Part shown: in pieces, positions 6,493 to 38,816 of the stretch
Layout: the number at the start of each line of letters is the position of its first letter
Position numbering within the stretch: the first letter of the stretch is position 1
Origin: an uncultured Candidatus Saccharibacteria bacterium
Lineage (GTDB): Bacteria; Patescibacteriota; Doudnabacteria; UBA920
NCBI GenBank assembly: GCA_964473815.1
Contig: CAYYQK010000001.1
Coordinates: forward strand, 93,523-157,522
DNA: 64,000 nt
Direction: 5' to 3'
Notes under the pieces: generated by a model
The model's input: the letters and a program-made list of their open reading frames with translations, nothing else
Database searches by the model: none
What the model was told of the DNA's origin: nothing
Position numbers and translations under genes: made by a program

Positions 6493-7071
6493 TTGATGGA
6501 AATATCAGAACCAAAAATTATCGCGGACTGTCAGGCAGGTCAAATGGAGACATTTGTATATCTTTACGACAAATATGTCGAAAAAATCTACAAATTCCTC
6601 TATTTCCGGACTTTTGACCAAGAATTGGCCGAAGATATCACTAGCCAGACCTTTTTGAAGGCTATGGATAAAATTGGCTCCTTCAACGGAGAAAAGGGAA
6701 CTTTTCAGGCGTGGCTTTACCAAATTGCTCGCAACCTGCTCATTGATGAATATCGCAAGCAAAAGCCGACTGACAACATTGATGCTCACTTTGATTTAGC
6801 GAGTGACATTAATCTGGAATCGGAAACAGCTGGCAGTATTACCAATGAAAAGTTGCGCGAGTTATTACTTAGCTTGCCAGCGGAAGCGCAAGAACTTGTT
6901 AGTATGCGCTTATGGGATGAAATGTCTTACGCGGAAATCGCCATAATTACTGGCAAGAGCGAAGGCGCATTAAAAATGCAATTCTCCCGCATCGTTGATC
7001 AATTAAAAAAACATTCACACTTGTTGGTGCTATTCGTAGCCCTCCACTTATCATTAACGAAAATTATATGA
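6493..7071 (+). CDS. ECF-type RNA polymerase sigma factor (sigma-70 regions 2 and 4)
   Basis: Region 2: FLYFRTFDQELAEDITSQTFLKAMDKIGSF...WLYQIARNLLIDEYRK. Region 4 helix-turn-helix: SLPAEAQELVSMRLWDEMSYAEIAIITGKSEGALKMQFSR. Confidence 0.75.
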   Translation: MMEISEPKIIADCQAGQMETFVYLYDKYVEKIYKFLYFRTFDQELAEDITSQTFLKAMDKIGSFNGEKGTFQAWLYQIARNLLIDEYRKQKPTDNIDAHFDLASDINLESETAGSITNEKLRELLLSLPAEAQELVSMRLWDEMSYAEIAIITGKSEGALKMQFSRIVDQLKKHSHLLVLFVALHLSLTKII

Positions 7072-8744
7072 TAGAACATACTTCAAATAATGTAGACGAA
7101 CAAGTTTCCAGTATCATGGCAGAATTGGGATTGAATACAGATGATAGCAATGCGCGTAAAATAATCGCTCGTTTGCTTCAGTCAAAGCCAGACGTGGCAA
7201 TTGACTCGCAGTTTATGTCTCAACTCCGCAATGTACTTCAGGCGCACGGCAATGTGGCCGCAGCGCAAACAAAATCTAATCAATCATTTAAATTTACAGT
7301 AATGTTTGTAAACAGAATTCTTGCCTCAGCTTTAATTGTGATGGTGGTATTGGCGGGTGGTGGTTTTTGGTACATCCAAAACAAAACTGACAAACCTCTA
7401 TTTACTTCTCCTGCAGCAAAACAAGTAAACCAAGTTCTCTCTGGTAAGTATGGAGTATCAGAAAAGTCTCAAGAATCTTTCGGGGACTTAAGTAAAGTTT
7501 CTATCATCAATACAAAAAATGCGCCTAGTTTAGCGAACAATAGCACAGCTCCAAACAACAAAGCAGAGACCGCTACCATGAAGGCTTTTGGGGGTGGCGA
7601 TACTAAGTACATTGCCCCAGGCGAACCTTATCCAATTTACGACTACTCATTCCGTTACGACGGCAAGGACTTACCACAATTAGGTGCGAATCAGTTCGTT
7701 CTTCGACGCACATTGCCGCAACAGCAACCAAGTTTGTTTGACCGCATTGTTAGCACACTTAGCTTTGGTCTAATTGATTTAACTAAATTTAGAGATACCA
7801 AAGTACAGTCGCTCTCCTTTGTTGAAGACCATCAATATGGTTACAGTGTTGGTGTTGATATGGTAAATGGCAGTGTGAATTTAAGCCAAAACTGGGAAAA
7901 GTGGCCACAACCAGATTATTCTAAATGCGCGCAACCTGTTCCTGCAGGATCGGCAGAGCAAACTATGCCAGCTTGTGGTCCTCAACCTCTGAAGATTGGC
8001 GATATCCCTGCAGACGATGTGCTATTTAAATCTACCAATGCTTTTCTTGACCAGTACGGAATTTCTCGTGAAGCCTACGGCAATCCAAAAGTAGATAACT
8101 CTTGGCGCATCTATTACGACCAAGCTCCTGAATCTGAAAAGCAAAGCATATACATTCCGGAACAGTTGAATGTAATTTACCCTTTGATTTTGGATGGTCA
8201 ACAGGTGTTTGATGAATCCGGGAATCCATACGGCATGAATGTAACTTATGATGTTCGCAATCAAAAAGTTGCTAGCATTTATGAACTGACTACACATCAA
8301 TACGACCGTTCACAGTACACGGGCGTAACTAACAGCAAGATAATTACCGACTATGCTGAACGCGGTGGCTGGCGCAATCAGATTTATCCACTTGATCGCA
8401 GCATTCCAGAGAACCGTAACGCTAAAAGCGCTGTGTTGAAACTGGACACTCCAACAGTGAAGTTAGTAAAAATGTATTACACAGATCCGAATCAACCTTA
8501 TTCACCAAGCAATAGTGGCGAATTGTATGTACCAGCTTTGGTGTTCCCAATCAAAAACTATCAGGAAGTTAATTACTGGCGTTCTAGTATTATTGTACCG
8601 TTGGTTAAAGATATCTTTGATAGTGATCAAACTGGCCCGCAAACCTATTCTGAACCTGCACAGGGGATGGGTGGTTCAGCTGCGGGAGGTAGTGCTGAGA
8701 TTGAAATAGTATCTCCTTCAGACCTGCCAAAAAATCAAAACTAA
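7068..8744 (+). CDS. Putative anti-sigma factor / single-pass membrane protein with a large extracytoplasmic domain
   Basis: Start overlaps the sigma factor stop (ATGA coupling). Short N-terminal cytoplasmic segment, TM helix ILASALIVMVVLAGGGFWYI, then about 450 aa extracellular. Confidence 0.5.
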   Translation: MIEHTSNNVDEQVSSIMAELGLNTDDSNARKIIARLLQSKPDVAIDSQFMSQLRNVLQAHGNVAAAQTKSNQSFKFTVMFVNRILASALIVMVVLAGGGFWYIQNKTDKPLFTSPAAKQVNQVLSGKYGVSEKSQESFGDLSKVSIINTKNAPSLANNSTAPNNKAETATMKAFGGGDTKYIAPGEPYPIYDYSFRYDGKDLPQLGANQFVLRRTLPQQQPSLFDRIVSTLSFGLIDLTKFRDTKVQSLSFVEDHQYGYSVGVDMVNGSVNLSQNWEKWPQPDYSKCAQPVPAGSAEQTMPACGPQPLKIGDIPADDVLFKSTNAFLDQYGISREAYGNPKVDNSWRIYYDQAPESEKQSIYIPEQLNVIYPLILDGQQVFDESGNPYGMNVTYDVRNQKVASIYELTTHQYDRSQYTGVTNSKIITDYAERGGWRNQIYPLDRSIPENRNAKSAVLKLDTPTVKLVKMYYTDPNQPYSPSNSGELYVPALVFPIKNYQEVNYWRSSIIVPLVKDIFDSDQTGPQTYSEPAQGMGGSAAGGSAEIEIVSPSDLPKNQN

Positions 8745-8888: not shown

Positions 8889-11003
8889 GTGAGCTACCGA
8901 ATACCTACTAGGCTCGAAGATCTAGATCTAAAAGCCATGAGCATAGCTCAGTTAGGTGAATATCTATTCGAGATCGATGCCATTCAGGCAAGACGGTTTC
9001 GTAAGCTGGCTGATGAGGTTCGGGAGATTGCTTTTGATCCCATTTTGAATCATCTCCTTGCTTGTCAAAAGATGGATGTTCTTCCGCAAAAAGATGCTGT
9101 CAGAGAAGTGATTGATGACGCACAAAACGGGCGCTCGTTTCACGATGGGCGTAAGTTACAATATCGACTAGATTCGTACGTAAGACCTGAAGAAATAGAG
9201 GAGAGCACAGAAGACGATATGAGAAGGAACGGAGCAGTATGGAAGAAGGTGTCTGGTATTGAAATTTCATCAAGTAACCAGCTCTTTCTTTTGGTGAAAC
9301 CTAAACATGAAGCAACGTTTGTGGAGTGGCTGGGCAAAACACCCAATGTGATCGTGAAGTCAACCGATTTCGTTAAGACTTGCGGTGGCTTCAAAAGTAC
9401 GGAACGCAACGTATGGTCACTTGCTCGGCGGGATGAGTTTTCAAAGGCCGTGCGAAACCAGCTTAATCCCAAAATTGGTCCCATCCAATTTAAATACTTT
9501 GATCACCCCATCGCCTTAGCGCGCGCTGTGGCGGATAAATTACTTAAGGAATTGCCCAGCGAAGTCCTGGCGAGACTCGAAGAAAGGCAGCAAGTATTTT
9601 CTGTCCCTGCGGTGAATAACGCCGTAGGTTTACCGCCGCATCCAGTGGCGCAACCAAAGGAGAAAGCAAAGATGATACGAACACACGAAGAAGTTTTAGA
9701 TCAGCTGCCGCGGTGGATCTTTGCGAAAGCAAAAGGTACCACTGGATGGCAGCTGGAGTTTGAGCGGTTGTGGAATTTCACCAGAGACCACGCTGACTTC
9801 GCTGGGGTGAATTTGGCGGAGTTTACTTCGGCCATGTTTCACGCCCTATGTCTTACGAGCAAAATGCCGAGCGATACAACCAAGCACCTAATATTCTATC
9901 TCATGGATGTTAATGGTTGGGGTCGGAAGGATAAGGACCTGGTGGTTAAAGCTCTTCATAACCGAGGTTTCCAGAGTGTCAATGAATCGATCCTCGAGCT
10001 CGCCATGAGTCAGTATGTTCCTTCGGAACTCGCCGTCGGGCGGGACTCGGAGAATTCAGAAAGGTCCGCTTCAGTTGAAGGTGATGCCGTATCGAACGAC
10101 TTTACTCGTCCGAAGGTGGAAGAATTTATGGTCGACCTCGATTCGATGGACTTCTCGTCGATGAAGCTTACCGAGATGGCGCGGGTATTTCTGACACCTA
10201 ACGGTGAACTGATCGAAAACTTCCACACCACCAAGGACTTGTTTGAGTACATCTCGGAGAAGCATCCGGGTATCAAACTTGGCAGCTTTACGTCCACCTT
10301 CTATGCTGTGGCTCGGAAGCAAAAGAGCCCGAACGGATCCAAACCCGAAACTGCGAAAGGGACTAAACCACAGACGCCGCGAGGGTCGAGATTTGATGAG
10401 GTGAAGTCTGACCAGGTGAAGGCTGGTGAAGGGTCGGTGCTGACCATCCACCAAATATTGCAGCAGTACATGAATCCGGATGGTTCTTATCCGGCATCGC
10501 ATCCGACTCGACTCGACTTCATAAAGCTGGTGAATCAGATCAATCCCGAGATCCAAAGAGTCACCATTCTAAATTCCTTGGCAGATTTTCGCAGAAAACT
10601 TCGGAATGGCCAGATTGTTATGGAGCAGAGATCGCCGGAGGTCGAGCCTGAATCGAGAATGGAGACCGGGGAGGAGTTGGAGCCTGGCGCCGAAACTCAG
10701 GAGGCATTCGATCCTTCGGAAGGGCTCGATAAAACTTTCGACGAAGAACCTGAACCGGATCAGTCTGCCAACGAAGAGGCCTCTGCAACGCCAGCAATCA
10801 TCGCTCCTGAGCGAGAAATCGTTCCTGAGCCGATCAAGGCGGTGGAAAGCAGTGATGGCGGATCTGAACTGGAGAGGCTTAAGGCCAAGATCGCTGCGGG
10901 ACGGGATGTGTACGACTTTCTCGGGAATCATCCGGAGTTCCTCGAGATGTACGTTCGGTTCAAAGCAACGCATCCAAATGTAAGTCTGTTCGAAGAGAAC
11001 TGA
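8889..11003 (+). CDS. Hypothetical 704-aa soluble protein with an acidic C-terminal region; GC-rich foreign-looking gene
   Basis: GTG start with a consensus SD. GC clearly higher (about 53%) than flanks, producing several long antisense ORFs. No TM helices. Acidic tract EPESRMETGEELEPGAETQEAFDPSEGLDKTFDEEPEPDQSANEE. No recognisable family. Confidence 0.6.
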   Translation: MSYRIPTRLEDLDLKAMSIAQLGEYLFEIDAIQARRFRKLADEVREIAFDPILNHLLACQKMDVLPQKDAVREVIDDAQNGRSFHDGRKLQYRLDSYVRPEEIEESTEDDMRRNGAVWKKVSGIEISSSNQLFLLVKPKHEATFVEWLGKTPNVIVKSTDFVKTCGGFKSTERNVWSLARRDEFSKAVRNQLNPKIGPIQFKYFDHPIALARAVADKLLKELPSEVLARLEERQQVFSVPAVNNAVGLPPHPVAQPKEKAKMIRTHEEVLDQLPRWIFAKAKGTTGWQLEFERLWNFTRDHADFAGVNLAEFTSAMFHALCLTSKMPSDTTKHLIFYLMDVNGWGRKDKDLVVKALHNRGFQSVNESILELAMSQYVPSELAVGRDSENSERSASVEGDAVSNDFTRPKVEEFMVDLDSMDFSSMKLTEMARVFLTPNGELIENFHTTKDLFEYISEKHPGIKLGSFTSTFYAVARKQKSPNGSKPETAKGTKPQTPRGSRFDEVKSDQVKAGEGSVLTIHQILQQYMNPDGSYPASHPTRLDFIKLVNQINPEIQRVTILNSLADFRRKLRNGQIVMEQRSPEVEPESRMETGEELEPGAETQEAFDPSEGLDKTFDEEPEPDQSANEEASATPAIIAPEREIVPEPIKAVESSDGGSELERLKAKIAAGRDVYDFLGNHPEFLEMYVRFKATHPNVSLFEEN

Positions 11004-11029: not shown

Positions 11030-11073
11030 AAACGGGTACAGGAGCAAACGCTCTTGTACCCGTTTATTTTTTT
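11030..11073. terminator. Bidirectional intrinsic terminator between convergent genes
   Basis: 16-bp stem aaacgggtacaggagc / gctcttgtacccgttt with one G-U pair, followed by a TTTTTTT run. Confidence 0.6.
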
Positions 11074-12889
11074 ATTTATCTAAGTCGCTTTTTTTGATGA
11101 AGTCCGTTGGCATTTCAATAGTTTTGACTGTGCCAATATTTTTGGATTCAGTTTCAATTTTGAGTTCCGCATCAAAATTTAGTTGCTTGATTACTTCCAT
11201 GGCGATTTTGTAAAAATCATCTTCGATTTTTGAGTCTTCCTGCTTGATAGTTGATTCACTTGTGCCAGGTTGATTCGCGAATTCTGCCGGGATTCCTTTT
11301 TCCGTAAGCGCAACTTCGCCTGATTTCATTCCGGCCGTGGCTTGACCAAGACAAAATTCAATTTTATAACTTTGCGGTGAGACCTGAGTGTACCAATAAG
11401 TGTTGTAATAATCAGTACAAGTTCCATCGGGTGGAGTAGGGGAAGCGGGATACTTTTGTATAAAGCCGGCCTCTATCACTCCTACAGGCTGTCCGTCTTT
11501 TGCTTCTGGATAATGACCATTTGCTTCATAGTATAACTCGACTGCGGACGAAATACTTCTGGCATCTGAGACGCGACGTGCGTCGCGAGCCTTGGCATCT
11601 GTATTTTTTATTTGGTCTTTTGGATTTAGAATTCCCGGTTTGTTAATTGCATCTTGAAATGCTTGTAAAGTTTTTGATACAGAAATAGCATTCAATGTTA
11701 GCTGGCTCTTATACATTTTATGGTTTGTCACACCAACCCAAATTTCATAATTTTTAAATTCAATTTTATCTACGATTGCGTTAGCAATATCTTTGGATTG
11801 CTGCTTAAATTTGCTGTCCGCTAAACTTCCTTCATCAATAGAGTCTTCAACATACTTATGAAATCTGTCTTTGTTAAGAGCTAAAGAATAATGCGCAACT
11901 ACATGACCGTCTATGTATGTGAGTCCATCCAATTGCTTTATATCAAACAAGCGATTTTCTTTGAGCAGTTTGACTGTACCAACATCGCGTGAATCGTAAA
12001 ACGCAGATTTAATATCACTACGGATAGTATCGATGTCTTTTTTGTCGGTAGATTTAATCCACTTCCCTTTGCCTGGAGCAACTTCATGGCTTCCTAAAAT
12101 GGCATCAACAGTTTTTTGGATATTGTCGTTATAGTCAAATTTTCCAAAAGCTTCACTGTCATTAAGCTTTATGTCAACATTGCCGGAATATTCTTTGGCA
12201 TCGTTTGTGAGAGAGAGATCTACGTGAGTATCGGTTTGTGGTGCATCTTCATCTTTTACATTCAAATAAGCATTCACATTCCCGGCGATAGTTAAATCGG
12301 AGATTTTAAATGAATACTGGCTATCGTATTGATTGAGCTCTTCGTCTGTAAAAATACCAAACGCTTTAGCAAAATTTGAAGGCTTAAACTGATAACTCCC
12401 AGAATCAGTGTATGTAATACTTAGCTTACTATCTTGAGTTTCCTTTAAACTGCTATCTACCATTTGCACCCAAACTTTGTTTTGGAAATCTTCACCCATC
12501 GAAGTCTTGCCCATTCCATAAACAACATAGGCCGAGGCTATAAGAGCAATTACTACCAAAATCAAAACACCAGGAATAATGAGAATTAGTTTTGAATGAA
12601 GAAAACGGCTAAAAAACGATCTGGCTGGTGGTGGGGGTGGTGTCGATGATGTAGGGGGAGCGGGCGGGGTTGGAGTTGGTGGAGCGGGTGGAGTTGGCGG
12701 TGGCGGTGTCGGAGGAGTGGAAGGCATGGGCTTCAACGGAGCCGGTGGCGGTGTCGGTGGCGGTGTCGGTGATTTAGATGCGGGCGCAGCGACACTCGCT
12801 GGTTTAAATGCAGAGCTTGGAATCGGTGGTGCGAGCGGCACCGATGGTTTTGGTTGCTGCATTTTAGGATCCAAGTTTTGATTTTCCAT
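11072..12889 (-). CDS. Membrane protein with a Pro-rich N-terminus, one TM helix and a C-terminal pseudopilin (GspG-like) motif
   Basis: Start set at internal ATG 12889 (MENQNLDPK) because the longer ORF overlaps msrA. PTPPP repeats; TM LILIIPGVLILVVIALIASAYVVY. C-terminal motif DARRVSDARSISSAVELYYEANGHYPEA resembles type II secretion pseudopilin cores. Confidence 0.55.
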   Translation of the reverse strand: MENQNLDPKMQQPKPSVPLAPPIPSSAFKPASVAAPASKSPTPPPTPPPAPLKPMPSTPPTPPPPTPPAPPTPTPPAPPTSSTPPPPPARSFFSRFLHSKLILIIPGVLILVVIALIASAYVVYGMGKTSMGEDFQNKVWVQMVDSSLKETQDSKLSITYTDSGSYQFKPSNFAKAFGIFTDEELNQYDSQYSFKISDLTIAGNVNAYLNVKDEDAPQTDTHVDLSLTNDAKEYSGNVDIKLNDSEAFGKFDYNDNIQKTVDAILGSHEVAPGKGKWIKSTDKKDIDTIRSDIKSAFYDSRDVGTVKLLKENRLFDIKQLDGLTYIDGHVVAHYSLALNKDRFHKYVEDSIDEGSLADSKFKQQSKDIANAIVDKIEFKNYEIWVGVTNHKMYKSQLTLNAISVSKTLQAFQDAINKPGILNPKDQIKNTDAKARDARRVSDARSISSAVELYYEANGHYPEAKDGQPVGVIEAGFIQKYPASPTPPDGTCTDYYNTYWYTQVSPQSYKIEFCLGQATAGMKSGEVALTEKGIPAEFANQPGTSESTIKQEDSKIEDDFYKIAMEVIKQLNFDAELKIETESKNIGTVKTIEMPTDFIKKSDLDK

Positions 12890-12940
12890 TTTTTGTTTCT
12901 TAGAAAGTCTTTTCTTAATTATATATGATATAATCGGTTC

Positions 12941-13492
12941 ATGGAAAGTTATCCACAGAAAAATGAAATTGCTGTTTTTGCGGGTGGATGTTTTTGGTGT
13001 ACCGAAGCAATCTTTCAAAAATTGCGTGGTGTTGCCAGTGTGGTGCCAGGGTATGCTGGTGGGACCGTTGAAACCGCTAATTACGAGCAAGTATCCTCTG
13101 GTCGAACCGGGCATGCGGAGAGTATTCGGTTTGAATTTGATCCACAAAAAATTTCCTACCGCGATTTACTCGAAGTCTTTTTTGCTACTCATGATCCGAC
13201 TACTTTAAATCGGCAGGGAAATGATATTGGGCCACAATACCGATCGACAATTTTTTATGCCAATGATCAACAAAAGGGCGAGGCGGAAAAAATTATTAAA
13301 GAACTCACGGATGAGCGGGCTTTTACTGATCCGGTCGTGACAACCTTAGAGCCATTAAATGAATTTTATGAGGCTGAGGACTATCACAAGAATTATTATG
13401 AAAGAAACCAAGGGCAACCGTATTGTCAGGTTGTAATTAATCCGAAGATAAAAAAGTTTAAAGAAAAGTTTGCATCATTAATACAAGAATAA
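12941..13492 (+). CDS. msrA: Peptide methionine-S-sulfoxide reductase MsrA
   Basis: Catalytic GCFWC motif ([15 protein letters not shown]) and conserved YHQ/NYY regions. Confidence 0.85.
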
Positions 13493-24019: not shown

Positions 24020-25819
24020 ATGTCGAAAACTCTTTATTTAAATTTAGAAGATGATGTAGCCAAAGTGGCCGCTAAACTCCAGCGCGAACGCGCTGAAGAT
24101 ATAGTTTTGGTTTTTCCTAAAGGGAGCTATCTGTTTTCGGATCGTATTAATATGCGACTGCTCAAGAAGCAGCTCGACATGCTTGGGAAAAATATTTCCA
24201 TTTTAACGATGGATGAGCGCGGTAAGGCTTACGCTGAGGAAGCAGGTTTTGTGATTAAGAGCATGCCCCGCTCACTACGCTCCAGCTCTTTGTCCGACAT
24301 TCGCCCGCGCCGCACAGAATCTCGTCTCACAGAATCCCGCAGCGCAGAACCACGCAACGTGGCACCCCGCCGCACAGAAACTCAACCAACAAAACCTCAG
24401 ATAACATCACCAAAGAAAACTTTGGCAACTTTAGCTGCAGCCGCAGCTGCAATCCCTGTTGCAAAGAAACTGAAGAAGAGACCAGTCGCATCAGCTGCAA
24501 CTGCCCAAACAACAGCTGCCGCATCAAATGCAATGCGCATTAATACAAATGCCAATCCAACCCCGCATAGCGGCAGAACGGTTTCTGCAAAAAGAGCAGA
24601 TGAACTTTTCGAACCTGTTCAAAAGCAAGACAATGTCTTTATGCCCCCAAATTCGCGCAATGCAAATTTACCGCGCCGTCGTCGTTCTTACCGTGCATGG
24701 GTAGTTGGATTTATTGCTCTAGCCTTAGTAATAATTTTAGTGCTTGTTCTGGTCGTGCTTCCAAGTGCTAACATCACAGTTTATGCGAAATCAGAAACTA
24801 TCGCTCGCGACATGGACATTGTTGCTAATATCCAAACGCAAACTCCGCAGTCACAAACTCTTACCATCCCAGCAGTAGCAGTAAATGAACAACGAGACCA
24901 ATCCGACTCTTTCACGGTTAATGGTAAAAAAGAAATGGGCAGCAAAGCCGAAGGTCGCGTGGCGATTTATAATTTATCTGGCCAACCAATCACACTAAAA
25001 GCATCAACCACCACACTTACGGTTGGTACAAAATCTTACAGTTTCAAATCTGATCAGACTGGAGTCCATGCCTTAACCAGCGCAGCGAACGACAACAATG
25101 CTTCTGTTGCAGACATTATTGCTAGCGATGGGGGAGAGTCATTCAACTTGCCTGCTGGGACGCGCATGGAAATTACCAACCAGGCCTTTGGTAGTCAGCC
25201 ACAAAAATTATATGCAAAGACTGTAACCCAAGTGGTGGGCGGTTCATCCCGATTTATCTCAGTGATCACAAAAGAAGATACTGACAATGCCCAAAAACAG
25301 CTTATTCAAAAAATGGTCGACAATATTAACGCCGGCCTTTCCGACCGTAACGTAAAATTGGTTGATGGCGCATACACTATTAATGTGCAATCTTTCACAA
25401 CTGATAAACCTGAAAATACTGAAACCACCACTTTCAACGCCGAACTGAAAGTCACTATAACTGGTCTCGCCTTTGATGAAACAGGGTTAAAAAATTTGGT
25501 GCGTACTCGATTGCTCTCCTCTCTTGATGGCAATAAAACTTTACAACCTCTTGATCAAGATACAATCATTTATAAAATTTCAAATCTGGATGTGCAAAAT
25601 GGCATCATGCAACTCTCCATTCACTACGAAACCACCGACAAGCCAACTATTGACCCAGTTGATATTAAAAATAAGATCACTGGTAAGTCCAAACAGGAAG
25701 CTTCTGATTTAATTCTTGCCAACAGTGATATTGATCATGTGGAAATTACAGTACAACCTGCTTGGCAGTCGGGGATACCACGCATCTCTGGGAAAATCCA
25801 CATTGAAGTAAAAGAATAA
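24020..25819 (+). CDS. Hypothetical single-pass membrane protein
   Basis: N-terminal globular domain, then a low-complexity R/S/T/E repeat tract (RPRRTESRLTESRSAEPRNVAPRRTETQP), TM helix WVVGFIALALVIILVLVLVVL and a large C-terminal domain. Confidence 0.5.
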   Translation: MSKTLYLNLEDDVAKVAAKLQRERAEDIVLVFPKGSYLFSDRINMRLLKKQLDMLGKNISILTMDERGKAYAEEAGFVIKSMPRSLRSSSLSDIRPRRTESRLTESRSAEPRNVAPRRTETQPTKPQITSPKKTLATLAAAAAAIPVAKKLKKRPVASAATAQTTAAASNAMRINTNANPTPHSGRTVSAKRADELFEPVQKQDNVFMPPNSRNANLPRRRRSYRAWVVGFIALALVIILVLVLVVLPSANITVYAKSETIARDMDIVANIQTQTPQSQTLTIPAVAVNEQRDQSDSFTVNGKKEMGSKAEGRVAIYNLSGQPITLKASTTTLTVGTKSYSFKSDQTGVHALTSAANDNNASVADIIASDGGESFNLPAGTRMEITNQAFGSQPQKLYAKTVTQVVGGSSRFISVITKEDTDNAQKQLIQKMVDNINAGLSDRNVKLVDGAYTINVQSFTTDKPENTETTTFNAELKVTITGLAFDETGLKNLVRTRLLSSLDGNKTLQPLDQDTIIYKISNLDVQNGIMQLSIHYETTDKPTIDPVDIKNKITGKSKQEASDLILANSDIDHVEITVQPAWQSGIPRISGKIHIEVKE

Positions 25820-31360: not shown

Positions 31361-34300
31361 ATGGCCACTCGACCACCTACGCCGGCACAAGCTCGGTATA
31401 GAATGCGCTTTACCGTGCATCAAATTCCTGACCCCGCTCCAAAGCAATTTTTTCACCTTAACCGCATAATGCTTGGGAAGGCGCTAGCTTTTGTGGCGGT
31501 TTTTTCTTTATTACTAAATAGTATCGGAGCTGCGCAAGCTAAGACAGATAAAGTATCAGTCTGTCATAAGACCGGCAATGGATTTCAATTACTGGAAGAT
31601 ATAGCTGATAACGCTTTACCTGGTCACTTAGGCCACGGGGATATTTACCCAGTACCGGCGAATGGCTGTCCTGAGACTCTGCCCGAAAGTACCGCAACCG
31701 TTACAATTGTAAAATATATTGACGGAGTCCCTGCTACAGCTGAACTGGCCCACAGCGCAGAATTTCCTATGACCGCAACCTGGAATGCAACGAATATTGG
31801 TCCTGGCAGTGGTAATTATACCTTAGGTCCGACTGGTTATAACAATAACAACCCCTATCAAGCCACCACATCAGCAATGACAACTGGGGCTAGTTATACA
31901 ACTTCTGAATTAACAAATACCGCTGTAGTCGGTACTAATTGCGAAGGGAATAATGCCTTTGCTTTAAGTGGATATTCATTGGGCAATACTTTGTCGGATG
32001 CAGAATCAGCTTTGGTATCAGTTGATGCTCCTGCTCTAACTAATTTAAGTTCAGATAAATACATTATTGTTTGGAATAAGGATTGTAGTAAAGTTGTACC
32101 GCCGGTGAATGTTGATTTTGAAATTAATAAAGTTTGGGAAGACGCCCAAGGTGCTCCAATTGATGCTCCTAATAACAAGGATGACATTAGTATTACGGTA
32201 AGCCACGATAGCGATTCATTAAATTGTAAATATACGGACGGAAATTTCGGTTGCGATGGAGATGGGGTTTTGAGCGGGCTTTCAACCGATACATTCAATA
32301 TCACTGAGACAGGTGTGCCAGCAGGTTGGTCTGCAGATCCTCAGACTGTGGGGGAAAACATCGCCGCGAATTGTCCGGCAGACGTTGAGGATGGAGATAC
32401 ATGTACTATAACAATCGTCAATAAGCTCAGTTCAATCTCACCATGTAATACAGAGCTGATAATTAATGGCGGCTTTGAAGCGCCGTTGGTAACTGATTCT
32501 AATAATTGGCAATTATTCCCATCAGGTACTGAAAATCTGGGGTGGTCTGCCGATGCCGCCGGTACAACTACTAACGGTAATTTAGAAATACAAGCCGGAG
32601 TCTTTGGCTGGAATGCGCATAGCGGCAACCAATTTGCAGAAGTTGATTCAGATAAATCAATGAGTTATTCACAGGACTTAATCACAGTTCCCGGTGGAAT
32701 TTATACGGTTACTTTGTGGTCATCTCCTCGTCCTGGTCAATCAGCCAGTGAAAATAAAACTGAAGTGAAAGCCGGGGCAACAGTGTTAGATATAATTTCG
32801 GAAGATGGTACTAGCCTAAGCCAAACCAATTGGACAGAGCATACGTATACATTTACGGCAGCAACGCCGATCACTCATTTTAGCCTGACGGATGTAGGGC
32901 CAAGCAATGGTTTGGGTGGCTTATTTGACGATGTAAGCGTTAAGCAGCAATGTGTTTCTCAAGTGACGTTATGTAAAAAGGATAACCACGACAATCCACT
33001 TTCTGGGTGGGAGCTGTATTTGAAAGGTCCAAAAATTGAGACAGTGAATGTGCCTTCAACCAACGGATTGGATGTTTCAACAAGCACATTGCCTGCCGGC
33101 GACTATGCTTTAGAAGCTAGTGGTACCTATGTTTATCGCCCAAACGATCCGAGTGCTTCAATTTCCGATGCGGCGTTTTCTAAAAGACTGCCATCAGATT
33201 CCGTTTATTCCATTGGAACGTCTCAGCCGTGGGTTCGCGTCAATGATTTCCCAAGTCCTTATCAAGGTTACTTAGGAATTCAAGTGGATGATACTAACAA
33301 TTTTGATTGGGGGTCTACCTTTAGCGCCACTCATAATTACACAGGAAATAAAACTTTAGCAGTTGACGGACAAATTAAATTCCGCATATTGGACGATAAC
33401 TATTCTGATAATAGTGGTGATTTGAGCGTTGATATATATCCGATTATCAAAGGCACTACAGGTGATAATGGTTGTGTGACTTTGCCGAATATACAATTTG
33501 ATACCTATACCGTAGGGGAAGTGATGCAGGATGGCTGGAGTAATGTCAGTGGTAATGGAGTGACTGCAGTTATTAATGAAAGCACGGAAAATTATACTGT
33601 AGTTAATCGTTGTGATAGCAATTGTAAATCCACAGTGACGGTTTGTAAGAAGGATAGTAGCGGAAATCCTCTTGCAGGGTGGGATGTGTTCTTGAAGGGC
33701 TCATTGCTTGAAACTGTTTCTGTAAATTCTAATAATGTTGCTGGCGCAGATTCAACGAATAGTCTTGTTGCCGGTCAAAAGTATGCTGTGGATGTCTCGG
33801 GAACCTGGCAAAACCGGGGTTTTGAGACCGTAGATGCCAGTTATACATCCCCCGATGGTTGGACCACCGTACTGGCAGCTCCGCAAGGTGGGTTTCCTGA
33901 CAATTTGCTGGAAATGCAAATTGACCACAACTTTATCGATTGGGGAGCGTATGCCAATGATCATAAATATCACACTGTGATAACTGGAACCGGAGCACCA
34001 GTAAACTTCGGAGTGTTTGATATTAATGACGATACTTATACTCCAGACCCTAGCTGGTACGGAGACAATATCGGTAATCTGACAATAAAAATTTATCCTA
34101 TTTACGAAGGCGTAACTACAGCCCAAAATGGCTGTGCGACTTTGGAAAATGTACCTTTTGGTAATTATGCTTTGGGGGAAGTGATGCAAGATGGTTGGGT
34201 AAACGAAAGCGGTGATGGTACATCGGTTCATGTCGTTAAACCAATCGAGCCGGGCCCAAACACCGAAATAAACCCATTCACTCTTGTAAATTCCTGTCAG

Positions 34301-36037
34301 TCTGAATCTTGCAGGACAGTTCCTCAGCTGCATCTAGTTAAAGTGGTCTGTTCTAGTTTTGGCGACATCAAAGGAAATGCAAATGCTGATACATACGACG
34401 CCACTGGCGGCAAATATAATTTGTTTAGCAACTATCCAAACTTTGACGGCGTGGTTGAACCTATTAGCCCCGCTGAAATTCCGGAAAATTGTAATACTCA
34501 GTCAGGCTGGAACTTTAAGCTTTCTACCGATATCGAACAAAATGATAATTCCCAAACAGTTACTACTGGAAACTCAGGAGAATATGTTACCCCGATTTCC
34601 GGCAATGACTCTGGATTAAATCCTGTATTGCAAACAGCTATTGCAAACGGTTCGTTATACGTAAGTGAAGTCACTCAAGACGGGTATGATTTTGGTGCTT
34701 TGCGCTGTTATAACGACGCTCTCAATGGCGATAATAAAGAATTAATTAATTTGGGCGAAAGCCAACCGGCAAATATTTATTGTATTGCATACAATGTCAG
34801 CCAGGTAAAACCTTGTGTGGTGGAGCCGATCACAAATGTATTAAGCAGTACTGATACACAATTCTTGGGACTTAAAGAAGGTGGGTCAGCACCGGCTGAT
34901 CTTTCCGATCCAACTGATTATCCATCTGGCACAGCTGGACCAGCTCAAACAGCAGGTCCAACAGGGTATCCTGGGGCATGGGATGGCTCAGCGAACGATT
35001 CTAGCGTCTCTGGTGCAGTTTATATCAGCAATGACTCTACTCAACCAACCAACAGCGGCGGACTCGGCTACGACGGTTCGGTGGATTCGTGGCGATTATT
35101 TAGTCAGACGTTCACAATCCCGGCGGGGGCAGTGAGTATTTCCACTCCTTCATTGCATTTTGCTGCTGACAACGAAGTCACTGTATTCTTAGATGATGCC
35201 CAAATTGGTACCAGTAATAGTTTTAGTTCTATCACAACAGTTGGACCGATCACTCTAACCGCCGGAACTCACACTTTGAAATTTGCAGTTAAGAATTATG
35301 CATTTGATCAAACTAATAATCCGACAGGAGTAATTTATAAGTTGGATAATATCTCCTACCAATGTAGTAATGGTGGTGGAGATTCAGACAAACACACCAT
35401 TTCCGGAATTGTTTACAATGACAACAACACCCAAAATGGCACATATAACGACGGTGAAGCAGGATTGCCGGGTTGGACTGTGTATATTGATGCAAACGAC
35501 AATGGAACTTTGGATTCTGGAGAAGAAACTACTACTTCCGGTGCAGACGGGCATTATAGCTTTACAAACTTACCATCAGATTGTTATGTAATACGAGAGG
35601 TCGTGAATGACGGTTGGAATCAAACCGGTCCGGTTGGTCCACCTGCCAATAAATATCAATTTGGTATTGGTTCGGGAAATTGTGATGAGTCCCTGACTAT
35701 TGTAGGAAAAGTTTTAGGGTCGGTTATTCATACGGCAAATGCCTTAACGATCAACCCTGACCCAACCGATGCTAATTTTGGGAACATAATCACCACTAAT
35801 AATACTGGTGGAAGTAGTGGAAGTAGCAGAACAAACATCCCACAGGGACGAGTATTGGGAGATACCACAAATATTCCTTACATTGACCCTGGTACCAATG
35901 GCCAAGTTTTGGGTGCATCCACAACCTTGCCTGTAACTGGGAACACTATGAATATACTTTGGGCTTTATTGGCATTAACTGCTGTTATTGTCTTACCAGC
36001 AAAAATCGTTCTCAAAATGAAGAAAGAAAATTCTTAA
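31361..36037 (+). CDS. Giant (about 1558 aa) LPXTG-anchored surface protein / adhesin with Cna-B/SdrD-B-like repeat domains
   Basis: Signal peptide MLGKALAFVAVFSLLLNSIGAAQA (an alternative start at ATG 31469 is possible). Repeated modules include TxCKKDxxxNPLxGW and GCxTLxNxxFxxYxxGEVMQDGW. An SdrD-B-like segment YNDNNTQNGTYNDGEAGLPGWTVYIDANDNGTLDSGEETTTSGADGHYSF. C-terminal sorting signal LPVTG, hydrophobic stretch, then KMKKENS. Confidence 0.75.
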   Translation: MATRPPTPAQARYRMRFTVHQIPDPAPKQFFHLNRIMLGKALAFVAVFSLLLNSIGAAQAKTDKVSVCHKTGNGFQLLEDIADNALPGHLGHGDIYPVPANGCPETLPESTATVTIVKYIDGVPATAELAHSAEFPMTATWNATNIGPGSGNYTLGPTGYNNNNPYQATTSAMTTGASYTTSELTNTAVVGTNCEGNNAFALSGYSLGNTLSDAESALVSVDAPALTNLSSDKYIIVWNKDCSKVVPPVNVDFEINKVWEDAQGAPIDAPNNKDDISITVSHDSDSLNCKYTDGNFGCDGDGVLSGLSTDTFNITETGVPAGWSADPQTVGENIAANCPADVEDGDTCTITIVNKLSSISPCNTELIINGGFEAPLVTDSNNWQLFPSGTENLGWSADAAGTTTNGNLEIQAGVFGWNAHSGNQFAEVDSDKSMSYSQDLITVPGGIYTVTLWSSPRPGQSASENKTEVKAGATVLDIISEDGTSLSQTNWTEHTYTFTAATPITHFSLTDVGPSNGLGGLFDDVSVKQQCVSQVTLCKKDNHDNPLSGWELYLKGPKIETVNVPSTNGLDVSTSTLPAGDYALEASGTYVYRPNDPSASISDAAFSKRLPSDSVYSIGTSQPWVRVNDFPSPYQGYLGIQVDDTNNFDWGSTFSATHNYTGNKTLAVDGQIKFRILDDNYSDNSGDLSVDIYPIIKGTTGDNGCVTLPNIQFDTYTVGEVMQDGWSNVSGNGVTAVINESTENYTVVNRCDSNCKSTVTVCKKDSSGNPLAGWDVFLKGSLLETVSVNSNNVAGADSTNSLVAGQKYAVDVSGTWQNRGFETVDASYTSPDGWTTVLAAPQGGFPDNLLEMQIDHNFIDWGAYANDHKYHTVITGTGAPVNFGVFDINDDTYTPDPSWYGDNIGNLTIKIYPIYEGVTTAQNGCATLENVPFGNYALGEVMQDGWVNESGDGTSVHVVKPIEPGPNTEINPFTLVNSCQSESCRTVPQLHLVKVVCSSFGDIKGNANADTYDATGGKYNLFSNYPNFDGVVEPISPAEIPENCNTQSGWNFKLSTDIEQNDNSQTVTTGNSGEYVTPISGNDSGLNPVLQTAIANGSLYVSEVTQDGYDFGALRCYNDALNGDNKELINLGESQPANIYCIAYNVSQVKPCVVEPITNVLSSTDTQFLGLKEGGSAPADLSDPTDYPSGTAGPAQTAGPTGYPGAWDGSANDSSVSGAVYISNDSTQPTNSGGLGYDGSVDSWRLFSQTFTIPAGAVSISTPSLHFAADNEVTVFLDDAQIGTSNSFSSITTVGPITLTAGTHTLKFAVKNYAFDQTNNPTGVIYKLDNISYQCSNGGGDSDKHTISGIVYNDNNTQNGTYNDGEAGLPGWTVYIDANDNGTLDSGEETTTSGADGHYSFTNLPSDCYVIREVVNDGWNQTGPVGPPANKYQFGIGSGNCDESLTIVGKVLGSVIHTANALTINPDPTDANFGNIITTNNTGGSSGSSRTNIPQGRVLGDTTNIPYIDPGTNGQVLGASTTLPVTGNTMNILWALLALTAVIVLPAKIVLKMKKENS

Positions 36038-36051
36038 CTTTAAGTAAACAT

Positions 36052-36087
36052 ACAACTACCCCGGGGAGGGGTAGTTGTATGTTTTTT
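36052..36087 (+). terminator. Rho-independent terminator after the LPXTG protein gene
   Basis: 11-bp perfect stem acaactacccc / ggggtagttgt, loop gggga, then TGTTTTTT. Confidence 0.7.
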
Positions 36088-36151
36088 GTGGATAATTATT
36101 TTATAAAAGTGGGTCGCGTGGCGTTGGTTTACACGCCGGTGAAGTTTAATT

Positions 36152-36748
36152 ATGCCTAAGATATTAATTAAAATATTATCGGGTTTCTTAATTTTATTGC
36201 TGTTGGCAATAATTGCTTATGTTGTTTTAAACGCAACGTATTTTTCAAAGCAATTTGAATTTAAATTTAATCCACCAGTCCCAGCTCCGCCAGTAAATCA
36301 AAATAATATCAAAGGCGACCCTAATCAAGTAGAAATTCCCAGCTTGGGAATCAAAGCGCCAATTGTAGAACCTATATCAAACAAAGAGACAGATTTTCAA
36401 GAAGCATTAAAAACAGGCGTGGTTCATTTCCCCGGCTCTGCAAAAGTAGGGGAAGAAGGTAATATGTATATCTTTGGACACTCGTCGGACTTTGCGTTCA
36501 AAGCAGGTTCGTATAAAACCGTGTTCGCATTATTACCTAACATCAAAAATAATGCTGAGATTATCGTTACAAACAATGAGGGTACAAAATTTACTTATAT
36601 TGTAACAGGTCAGAAGATAGTTCGTTCGAATGATACGTCAGTGTTAGATCAAAATACTCACGGAAAAAAAATATTAACCCTGCAAACATCGTACCCGATT
36701 GGAACTGCGCTAAAAAGATATATTGTAATTGCAGAGTTCAAAGAATAG
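36152..36748 (+). CDS. Sortase-family protein with Ser in place of the catalytic Cys (TLQTS instead of TLxTC)
   Basis: N-terminal TM anchor. Sortase His motif NMYIFGHSSDF. Beta-strand region LTLQTSYPIGTALKRYIV aligns to the LTLITCTPYG....R motif of class C/E sortases with a conserved Arg. The codon is TCG (Ser). Confidence 0.6.
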   Translation: MPKILIKILSGFLILLLLAIIAYVVLNATYFSKQFEFKFNPPVPAPPVNQNNIKGDPNQVEIPSLGIKAPIVEPISNKETDFQEALKTGVVHFPGSAKVGEEGNMYIFGHSSDFAFKAGSYKTVFALLPNIKNNAEIIVTNNEGTKFTYIVTGQKIVRSNDTSVLDQNTHGKKILTLQTSYPIGTALKRYIVIAEFKE

Positions 36749-37202: not shown

Positions 37203-37258
37203 TTGAAATTGATAAAACCCTGGTCGAAAGGCTGGGGTTTTTGTTATATAATTTTGCT

Positions 37259-38257
37259 ATGGATAAAATGGAAGAACATGTACGCGCTGTTATGTTCGAC
37301 AGCAATAACAATTTAGTACTGATTCATCGTGTAAAACCAGATCGAGAGTACTGGGTTTTTCCAGGTGGAACAGTTGAAGCTGGGGAGAGTCATGAAGCTG
37401 CCCTGAAACGTGAGATTTTGGAGGAGGTGGGTGTAGAAATTGAAGTGGGGGAATTGTTTACCAGAATTGTTTTTGAAGGTTATGAGAGACCCCAGTTAAA
37501 TTTTTACTATTTGGCCAAGATTACTGGTGGGCAAATCGGTAGTGGTATGGGGCCGGAATTTCAGCGTGATCCTAAAATTCATGGAACTTATGGGGTTGAG
37601 GCTTTGTCTTTAAATGATGTGGTACTGCGGGATGTGGCCTCGCCTGAAGTGAAAAAGTTGGTGTGCGAAAAATTCCAAAAGACAGGCTGGGATCAGCATT
37701 ACAAAGATACCAAAGATAAACCACCTTCTGAATTATTAGTACAGGCTTTGGGGTACGTTATCAACAAGAATAATGCAATTGATATCGGTGCTGGTGCGAC
37801 TCTTCGGGATGCAAAGTATTTGTTAGATCAAGGATTTGAAAATGTAACTGTTGTGGATCAGGAAGAATCTGTTGCTGCGGCTGCAGAAAAAATCGGATCG
37901 AAAAAATTGCATTGTTATATCTCAAAATTCGCTGAGTTTGAATTCCCAGAAAATGAATATGATTTAGCTAATGCTAATTATTCTTTGCCGTTTAATCCGC
38001 CAGAAGATTTTGATAAGGTTTTCAGTAGAATTAAAAACTCGTTGGTTAAAGGTGGAATTTTTTGCGGGCAGTTTTTTGGGGTGAATGATGATTGGAATAA
38101 AAGTCCGCACCTAAGTTTTCATACAAAAGAGCAGGTTTTAGGTTTGCTTCAGGGGATGGAAGTTTTACATTTGGAAGAAAAAGAATTTGATGGAAAATTG
38201 GCCAGCGGAGCCCCAAAGCATCGTCATGTTTTTGATGTAATCGCTAGGAAAATTTAG
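37259..38257 (+). CDS. NUDIX hydrolase fused to a class I SAM-dependent methyltransferase domain
   Basis: Nudix box GGTVEAGESHEAALKREILEEVGV in the N-terminal half. C-terminal half has motif I IDIGAGAT and a DLANANYSL post-I region. Start placed at the first ATG (MDKMEEH); the ORF track uses upstream TTG 37241. Confidence 0.55.
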   Translation: MDKMEEHVRAVMFDSNNNLVLIHRVKPDREYWVFPGGTVEAGESHEAALKREILEEVGVEIEVGELFTRIVFEGYERPQLNFYYLAKITGGQIGSGMGPEFQRDPKIHGTYGVEALSLNDVVLRDVASPEVKKLVCEKFQKTGWDQHYKDTKDKPPSELLVQALGYVINKNNAIDIGAGATLRDAKYLLDQGFENVTVVDQEESVAAAAEKIGSKKLHCYISKFAEFEFPENEYDLANANYSLPFNPPEDFDKVFSRIKNSLVKGGIFCGQFFGVNDDWNKSPHLSFHTKEQVLGLLQGMEVLHLEEKEFDGKLASGAPKHRHVFDVIARKI

Positions 38258-38306: not shown

Positions 38307-38816
38307 TTAGTAGGTTGGGGGAGGAATTGTGGCGCTGTCAGGGGCAGGAGCAGCTGCTGGGGCGCTTGTAGACGCACCAGGACCGCTGTTAGGGGCACCG
38401 GAATCTTCACTGACCACATTTGGATTAGCTAAGACGTCATTGACCTTCTTGAGGATCTCCTCGGTAGTAAAGTAGGCCTTTACGAGGTAGGCTTGGACTT
38501 TTAATGCTTTGGTTTTGAGGATGTCTTTGTTGCTCCAAAGGTTGGAAAGGACAATTATTGGCGTGTCAGCCAATTTTTTGTCTTCATTTTTGCGGACGGT
38601 TTCTAGAACCTGGAAGCCATCGACTTCAGGAAGCATCAGGTCGAGCAAAACTATGTCCGGTTTTTCGGAAAGGATGAGGTTGATGCCCTCCTTGCCATCA
38701 CCGGCTTCTTTGACTTCGAAACCGTTCGTGGACAATTTATGTACCACGATTTCTCGCATGGCGATATTATCTTCTACAATGACGACTTTTTTGAGGTTTG
38801 TTTCAGGGGCGGACAT
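38307..38816 (-). CDS. Stand-alone receiver (REC/CheY-like) response regulator with a Pro/Ala-rich C-terminal tail
   Basis: KKVVIVEDNIAMREIV...DIVLLDLMLPEVDGFQVLETVR....IIVLSNL with phospho-acceptor Asp in LLDLMLP. No output domain. Confidence 0.7.
   Translation of the reverse strand: MSAPETNLKKVVIVEDNIAMREIVVHKLSTNGFEVKEAGDGKEGINLILSEKPDIVLLDLMLPEVDGFQVLETVRKNEDKKLADTPIIVLSNLWSNKDILKTKALKVQAYLVKAYFTTEEILKKVNDVLANPNVVSEDSGAPNSGPGASTSAPAAAPAPDSATIPPPTY

Follow-up and report, generated by a model that had tools for sequence, protein, structure and literature searches.

Sortases are defined as cysteine transpeptidases and, to our knowledge, all of the characterised members use a Cys-His-Arg active site. 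A sortase family occurs in more than half of the genomes of the Candidate Phyla Radiation (CPR) (PMC6744442). Here we describe a stretch of 64 kb (hereafter the window: positions 93,523 to 157,522 of contig CAYYQK010000001.1, assembly GCA_964473815.1) from an uncultured bacterium deposited as Candidatus Saccharibacteria and placed by GTDB among the Doudnabacteria, in which a sortase homologue encoded at 36152..36748 on the forward strand has Ser at the position of the catalytic Cys. This protein belongs to a large group of Ser-for-Cys sortases in Patescibacteria (mainly Doudnabacteria), which apparently has not been described so far; no description of a Ser-type sortase, or of Ser/Cys interchange in MEROPS family C60, was found in the full-text literature searched, which leaves out most subscription journals, and this absence is not proof. 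In a large clade maintained by selection, a Ser at this position would mean either that sortase chemistry extends to a serine nucleophile or that pseudo-sortases which bind substrates form a widespread family.

The gene encodes 198 aa from an ATG start in an undisrupted frame, and the product consists of an N-terminal hydrophobic transmembrane (TM) helix (residues 3-26, 36158-36229), a linker and a beta-barrel at residues ~59-196. The sequence motifs named in the initial annotation are all present, including the intact frame around a TCG codon. IFGHSSDF contains the GHSSD segment with His110-Ser111-Ser112-Asp113 (36479..36490; His110 codon CAC at 36479-36481), LTLQTSYPIG contains Gln178-Thr179-Ser180 (CAA ACA TCG, 36683..36691), in which Ser180 (36689-36691) occupies the nucleophile position of the TLxTC motif, and ALKRYIV contains Arg189 (AGA, 36716..36718), the conserved and invariant sortase Arg on beta8. 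Another residue of importance is Lys117 (AAA, 36500..36502), at a position where changes accompany those of the X residue in the LPxTG motif of the adjacent gene product.

Several lines of evidence place this protein among sortases. It matched the Pfam family Sortase (PF04203) with an E value of 1.3e-26 and 93.2 bits (cutoff 26.6) and passed the generic NCBIfam sortase model TIGR01076 sortase_fam (46.7 bits, cutoff 39.35). A phmmer search against PDB paired 'gkkiltlqtsypigtalkryivi' with 'GKDLLTLVTCTPLGINTHRILLT' of the class C sortase 8t28 (over a wider stretch, query LTLQTSYPIGTALKR with LTLVTCTPLGINTHR), so that Ser180 coincides with the catalytic Cys and Arg189 with the catalytic Arg. The AlphaFold2 (AF2) model built with 64 homologues as input had a pLDDT of 93.8 and a pTM of 0.86; the N-terminal segment forms a helix in it, His110 ends beta4, Ser180 ends beta7 and Arg189 lies on beta8, as expected for a sortase. 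In addition, all of the 50 best Foldseek matches in PDB were sortases (classes C, A, D and E; E values of 1e-11 to 1e-9). By sequence and fold the Ser-type protein is a member of the sortase superfamily (PF04203 / MEROPS C60), in which the central feature of the superfamily, the Cys, is not found. It is the only sortase in the window, and no second TLxT[CS] motif was found, either in its own ORF (open reading frame) or among the other real ORFs of the window. The candidate reading that the true TLxTC motif lies elsewhere is ruled out by this result and by the Cys-free sequences of most clade members.

None of the class-specific NCBIfam cutoffs was reached, and no curated class fits. Class D scored best (59.9 bits with NF033746 vs a cutoff of 165, and 63.2 with NF058671 vs 140), followed by class E (43.1 bits with NF033747 vs 160) and class C (40 bits with NF033745 vs 160). 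Moreover, class E substrates carry LAxTG, whereas the substrates encoded beside Ser-type sortases carry LP[R/V]TG with P in 70 of 70.

The Ser residue is conserved far beyond the window. A search across 5.8 billion proteins gave 638 matches, and in all of the 120 listed (48-100% identity) Ser occupies the catalytic column, with the motif LQTSYP[IVL]GTA..R almost invariant. Among 1.84 billion 50%-identity representatives, an exhaustive search with HMMER found 4303 matches; the best 150 examined were divided into 121 Ser-type sequences, 27 Cys-type sequences and 3 truncated sequences, and Cys-type representatives appeared among them only from an E value of about 1e-26 onward. Among Ser-type members, His110 and Arg189 are invariant, Thr179 is invariant or nearly so, and the Ser is never swapped for Ala, Gly or Thr. 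Cys residues are wholly absent from 99 of the 121 Ser-type members and no Cys position is conserved, which implies that no alternative nucleophile is available. The initial annotation had identified a sortase homologue with Ser replacing the catalytic Cys and had set a homologue search as a check on whether this Ser is conserved or sporadic; the claim was borne out across the clade by the Pfam match, the alignment to 8t28 and the 120 homologues listed, and sporadic occurrence was refuted.

Codon usage points in the same direction. In a set of 81 genes (80 loci of species-representative genomes and the window), all six Ser codons are used at this position: TCT in 29 genes, TCG in 23, TCC in 14, TCA in 13, and AGT and AGC in one each. 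The two AGY codons (AGT in L048, 8478-8480; AGC in L074, 2645-2647) belong to genes that are only 48% identical to each other and reflect separate codon switches of two steps each, both of which ended on Ser; a switch from TCN to AGY takes two substitutions and passes through Thr or Cys. The presence of both TCN and AGY codons in the clade recalls the argument that Brenner is said to have made in the 'tale of two serines'. In addition, an identical window protein, including the TCG codon, was found on four contigs (ENA, Logan and NCBI assemblies). The Ser at the nucleophile position is, on these comparisons, judged to be under purifying selection.

The host organisms are Patescibacteria, and most of the named ones are Candidatus Doudnabacteria. 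Complete or near-complete genomes with the gene include CP129476.1, OY968788.1, JAVHLR010000001.1 and CAVYGQ010000001.1. Either 'uncultured Gammaproteobacteria' or 'Candidatus Saccharibacteria' is the record title of many cassette-bearing contigs (among them L018, L054, L059, L061, L067, L074, L076 and L079), and automatic labels of metagenome-assembled genomes look unreliable in this group. A subgroup of Ser-type sequences (P0175, P0176, P0178, P0188, P0189 and P0190; 311-369 aa) has N-terminal Asp-rich 'DTDxDG(L/Y)xDxxE' repeats, which look like calcium-binding (thrombospondin type 3-like) motifs.

Directly upstream of the sortase gene, on the same strand, the window encodes a secreted adhesin-like surface protein of 1558 aa (31361..36037), which is the only LPxTG-type protein in the window. 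It contains a choice-of-anchor C domain, a SpaA/SdrD-B prealbumin-like domain and two internal repeats of ~230 aa, and it ends with ...TTLPVTGNTMNILWALLALTAVIVLPAKIVLKMKKENS. Its cell-wall sorting signal (35927..36037) is composed of LPVTG (35927-35941), a hydrophobic segment and the basic tail KMKKENS, in agreement with the initial annotation, and the clade-typical QVLGASTT stands directly before LPVTG. The annotated ATG (31361-31469) places a 36-residue extension before a classical signal peptide (MLGKALAFVAVFSLLLNSIGAAQA); translation probably begins at Met37 (31469) instead, giving a Sec signal peptide that ends in AAQA, followed by K. A motif search of this protein found no pilin motif (YPK, xPKN or YPKN), which, together with the low class C score, rules out a pilus-polymerising (class C) role for the sortase.

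A hairpin with a perfect 17-bp stem and 4 further pairs, followed by a U-run, is located between the stop codon of the substrate gene and the sortase start (36041..36091, forward strand). Its folding energy is -29.6 kcal/mol (z = -6.3), and none of 200 shuffled sequences folded as well; a consensus terminator scan overlooked it. This hairpin looks like an intrinsic terminator or attenuator, in which case expression of the sortase would probably depend on read-through or on a separate promoter and stay below that of the adhesin.

The pairing of a Ser-type sortase with an LPxTG protein is common in the clade. A gene for an LPxTG protein lies upstream on the same strand within 600 bp in 64 of the 81 genes and within 1.2 kb in 70 (about 85%), and these neighbour substrates range from 99 to 1965 aa. 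The consensus of the 70 sorting signals is (Q)VLGAxT[E/T]-L-P-[R/V]-T-G-x-P, followed by a mostly hydrophobic stretch of 20-30 residues and a basic tail. All 70 have the L, P, T and G of the LPxTG motif, and the X residue is R in 57, V in 11, and K and T in one each. Within ±8 kb, no second sortase of any type was found in the 80 loci, except for a tandem Ser-type pair in L019 (6594-9977), where the cassette is arranged as an LPRTG protein (454 aa), a Ser-sortase, another LPRTG protein (112 aa) and a second Ser-sortase.

A closer link between the two partners emerges from residue 117, which is located seven residues past the catalytic His (GHSSDxxx-117). Lys117 is present in 9 of the 12 pairs with LP[V/T]TG and in none of the 57 pairs with LP[R/K]TG, in which S, A, T or N is found. 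On a neighbour-joining (NJ) tree, the substrate state changes seven times and the Lys117 state six times; the changes coincide in six lineages, including that of the window (LPVTG with Lys117), with one exception. This covariation indicates that the LPxTG motif is recognised directly and in a position-specific manner beside the predicted active site. In a simple model, Asp113 would pair with the substrate Arg or, where that Arg is absent, with Lys117 (i+4).

Moreover, the two partners may be joined in one protein. In-frame fusions of substrate and sortase were found in three 50%-identity clusters (P0126, corresponding to L068/L093; P0132, corresponding to L092; and P0152), with the order of surface domain, LPRTG, TM segment, basic loop, TM segment and Ser-sortase, a topology that fits action in cis. 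The fusion ORFs in L093 (3001-4554; the same as in L068) and L092 (3001-5760) and that of P0152 have a surface domain with CLIPPER/DUF11 repeats and are of the 'Rosetta stone' type. The initial annotation had taken the sortase and its neighbour for a dedicated unit, and the cassette arrangement, the covariation at residue 117 and the fusions all speak for that view.

A different arrangement was found in four species-level genomes, in which the Ser-sortase gene has no LPxTG gene beside it and is instead part of the operon murD-ftsW-murG-[sortase]-murC, where the ends of the genes overlap (L027, 7938-8546; L034, 3110-3724; L041, 7947-8558; L072, 7965-8594). Proteins related to the cell wall are found in the window as well (MltG/YceG, an M23 peptidase and TagA/WecG), which indicates that a peptidoglycan wall is present and that a peptidoglycan acceptor is plausible.

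The residues that changed together with the nucleophile were identified by comparing the 121 Ser-type with the 27 Cys-type representatives. Both types share His110, Ser111, Ser112, Thr179, Pro182, Gly184 and Arg189. Gln178, at position -2 from the nucleophile, is tied to Ser: Q-x-S was found in 117 sequences, V-x-S in one and Q-x-C in none, and Cys-type sequences have M, I or V at this position. Similarly, Pro129 is found in Ser-type sequences and D or N in Cys-type ones, and Asp113 is present in 113 of the 121 Ser-type but only 8 of the 27 Cys-type representatives. The only sequence with a Ser nucleophile and Val at -2 (LTLVTSYP) is P0242 (L090, 621-1337), which may represent a transitional state in the evolution from Cys to Ser; the contigs of P0242, like those of the close Cys relatives P0235 and P0239, are short. 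The proposal that Asp113 serves as a Ser-specific third member of a catalytic triad was weakened, as GHSS, sometimes followed by D, occurs in Cys-type relatives; the covariation with the substrate suggests that Asp113 and residue 117 may handle the X residue of the substrate instead.

The closest Cys-type relatives come from Peregrinibacteria/Gracilibacteria (e.g., P0236, P0283 and P0309; 35-45% identity, E values of about 1e-24 to 1e-26), and CPR sortases of this type are named 'sortase' or 'class D sortase' by NCBI. They resemble the Ser-type proteins in the N-terminal anchor, GHSS, the core T-[C/S]-x-P-x-G-T...R and the spacing to Arg, but they differ in having Cys, M/I/V at -2, D/N at 129 and a variable residue 113. 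On two large contigs/genomes, no adjacent LPxTG gene was found at these Cys sortases, which stand alone among housekeeping genes (mnmA ... ligA). A crude NJ tree placed 26 of the 27 Cys sequences in a single clade and P0245 (Cys) near the base of the Ser group; the Ser sequences make up essentially one, not necessarily strictly monophyletic, group.

Based on these observations, we propose that the Ser180 protein acts as a catalytically active serine-nucleophile sortase (transpeptidase) dedicated to the neighbouring substrate, a reading to which we give an even chance. The sortase would recognise the sorting signal of the surface protein encoded upstream (...TTLPVTG... in the window and mostly ...ELPRTG... 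elsewhere) in a groove beside His110, where the loop GHSSDxxx-117 would read the X residue. Ser180, activated by His110, would then attack the bond between Thr and Gly, which would give an acyl-(ester)-enzyme, and an amine, most likely that of the peptidoglycan precursor lipid II, would resolve the ester and fix the adhesin to the cell wall. Arg189 would play its usual role and Gln178 would represent a compensating change. Catalysis by Ser, cleavage between Thr and Gly, the kind of acceptor and the functions given here to Gln178, Asp113 and Lys117 are all inferred. The more specific proposal of a thiol-free serine sortase, in which Ser180 and His110 work together with Arg189, Gln178 and a positive charge next to Asp113 (either the substrate Arg or Lys117), has in our estimate slightly less than an even chance. 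The retention of His110, Thr179 and Arg189 together with the newly coupled Gln178 is easier to reconcile with a re-tuned active site than with a defunct one.

Several points weigh against catalysis. The activity of the engineered Staphylococcus aureus SrtA C184S is reported to be dramatically reduced, to near inactivity (PMC4827206, citing an earlier study), and a bare Cys-to-Ser swap would thus be expected to inactivate a sortase. The GHSS segment, and partly Asp113, are also present in Cys-type relatives and are not adaptations specific to Ser. The placement in the mur operon is known from a single lineage. It is also conceivable that a conventional Cys sortase elsewhere in the same genomes may be the actual catalyst, and binding alone could explain the conservation of the groove, the covariation and the synteny.

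The last point leads to the strongest alternative, a pseudo-sortase that keeps the fold and the LPxTG groove without catalysis and serves as an escort, a retention factor or a membrane organiser for the adhesin. The behaviour of SrtA C184S would be in line with such a protein; synteny, residue-117 covariation and fusions demand nothing beyond binding, and the C-terminal TM segment of the substrate itself could anchor an uncleaved adhesin. Comparable pseudo-enzymes with a Cys-to-Ser change that bind their substrates do exist, such as the pseudophosphatase MK-STYX. However, pseudo-enzymes usually drop several catalytic residues, whereas His110, Thr179 and Arg189 are unchanged across more than 120 clusters (at most ~50% identity), and Ala, Gly or Thr never takes the place of the Ser. 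Likewise, T and G of the scissile bond are kept in all 70 substrates, a binding-only domain fused in cis has no obvious purpose, and the position in an operon for lipid II synthesis suggests wall chemistry. Activity is favoured over a dead binder because His, Thr, Ser and Arg have been kept over deep divergence, because the residues of the scissile bond are invariant, and because of the cis fusions and the one lineage with the lipid II operon. Taken together, the evidence on serine transpeptidase versus inactive pseudo-sortase leans towards activity, and we consider the pseudo-sortase unlikely, although it fares better than the other alternatives.

All the evidence for activity would serve equally well for a serine hydrolase, in which Ser180 and His110 cut the LPxTG motif and water resolves the ester, with release of the adhesin to an S-layer, the medium or a host cell. 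The fusions would then work as self-releasing proteins, and oxy-esters are less prone to aminolysis than thio-esters. In contrast, the serine DD-transpeptidases (penicillin-binding proteins) form ester intermediates that are aminolysed efficiently, the gene order murG-[sortase]-murC argues for a peptidoglycan-linked acceptor, and a peptidoglycan wall is present. A hydrolase is improbable and ranks clearly below the pseudo-sortase. An artefact, whether from sequencing, from assembly or from the decay of what was once an ordinary Cys-sortase gene, which the initial annotation had raised in part as a sequencing error, is practically negligible: nothing speaks for it beyond TCY and TGY codons being one position apart, the change from TCG to TGY takes two substitutions, and it is ruled out by the intact ORF, the four identical contigs from independent assemblies, the Ser in 120 of 120 homologues listed and 121 of the best 150 representatives, and the six synonymous Ser codons.

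If the reading as an active serine sortase is true, it would be the first switch of nucleophile in the sortase superfamily. Such an enzyme would also offer an oxidation-insensitive ligase scaffold free of an oxidisable thiol and with an orthogonal LPRTG specificity, and would add to the tools for protein ligation; some species have it joined to its substrate, as a unit that would process itself. Ultra-small Patescibacteria presumably live attached to host cells, and the cassette singles out the large adhesin-like proteins displayed by each species and indicates how they are probably fixed to the wall.

Other genes of the window are also worth mentioning. For five large ORFs of 558-704 aa (552-2351, 7068-8744, 8889-11003, 11072-13147 on the reverse strand, and 24020-25819), Pfam gave no match at E<=1e-3, and their neighbours are polysaccharide and cell-envelope genes (a Wzx/MurJ-like flippase, a GT4 glycosyltransferase, a Wzy_C O-antigen ligase-like protein and an S41 peptidase). 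Downstream of the sortase gene, the ORF at 37241-38257, with a TTG start, encodes an N-terminal NUDIX hydrolase fused to a C-terminal class I methyltransferase domain dependent on S-adenosylmethionine, and the ORF at 38307-38816 (reverse strand) encodes a lone response-regulator receiver domain, which is followed by a C-terminal tail rich in Pro, Ala and Ser and lacks a recognisable output domain.

Compared with known systems, class C, D and E sortases of Firmicutes and Actinobacteria (2xwg, 6ixz, 8t28, 4d70 and 5go5) have the same beta-barrel as the window protein by Foldseek (E values of about 1e-11), with equivalents of the His, the Thr-nucleophile pair and the Arg, a membrane anchor and LPxTG-type substrates; however, all of them use Cys, and the lid of class C is absent from the window protein. 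Interchange of Ser and Cys nucleophiles within one fold, with a His partner, is found in the PA clan (chymotrypsin-like proteases vs picornaviral 3C) and in the Ntn (N-terminal nucleophile) hydrolases, whose folds are unrelated to that of sortases. A further counterpart, S. aureus SrtA C184S, which has also been used as a 'cys-less' scaffold (PMC5578623), carries the same swap at the equivalent place in the structure. It results from one substitution made in the laboratory, whereas the natural Ser clade combines the swap with co-changes at Gln178 and Pro129 and an enriched Asp113, and is maintained by selection.

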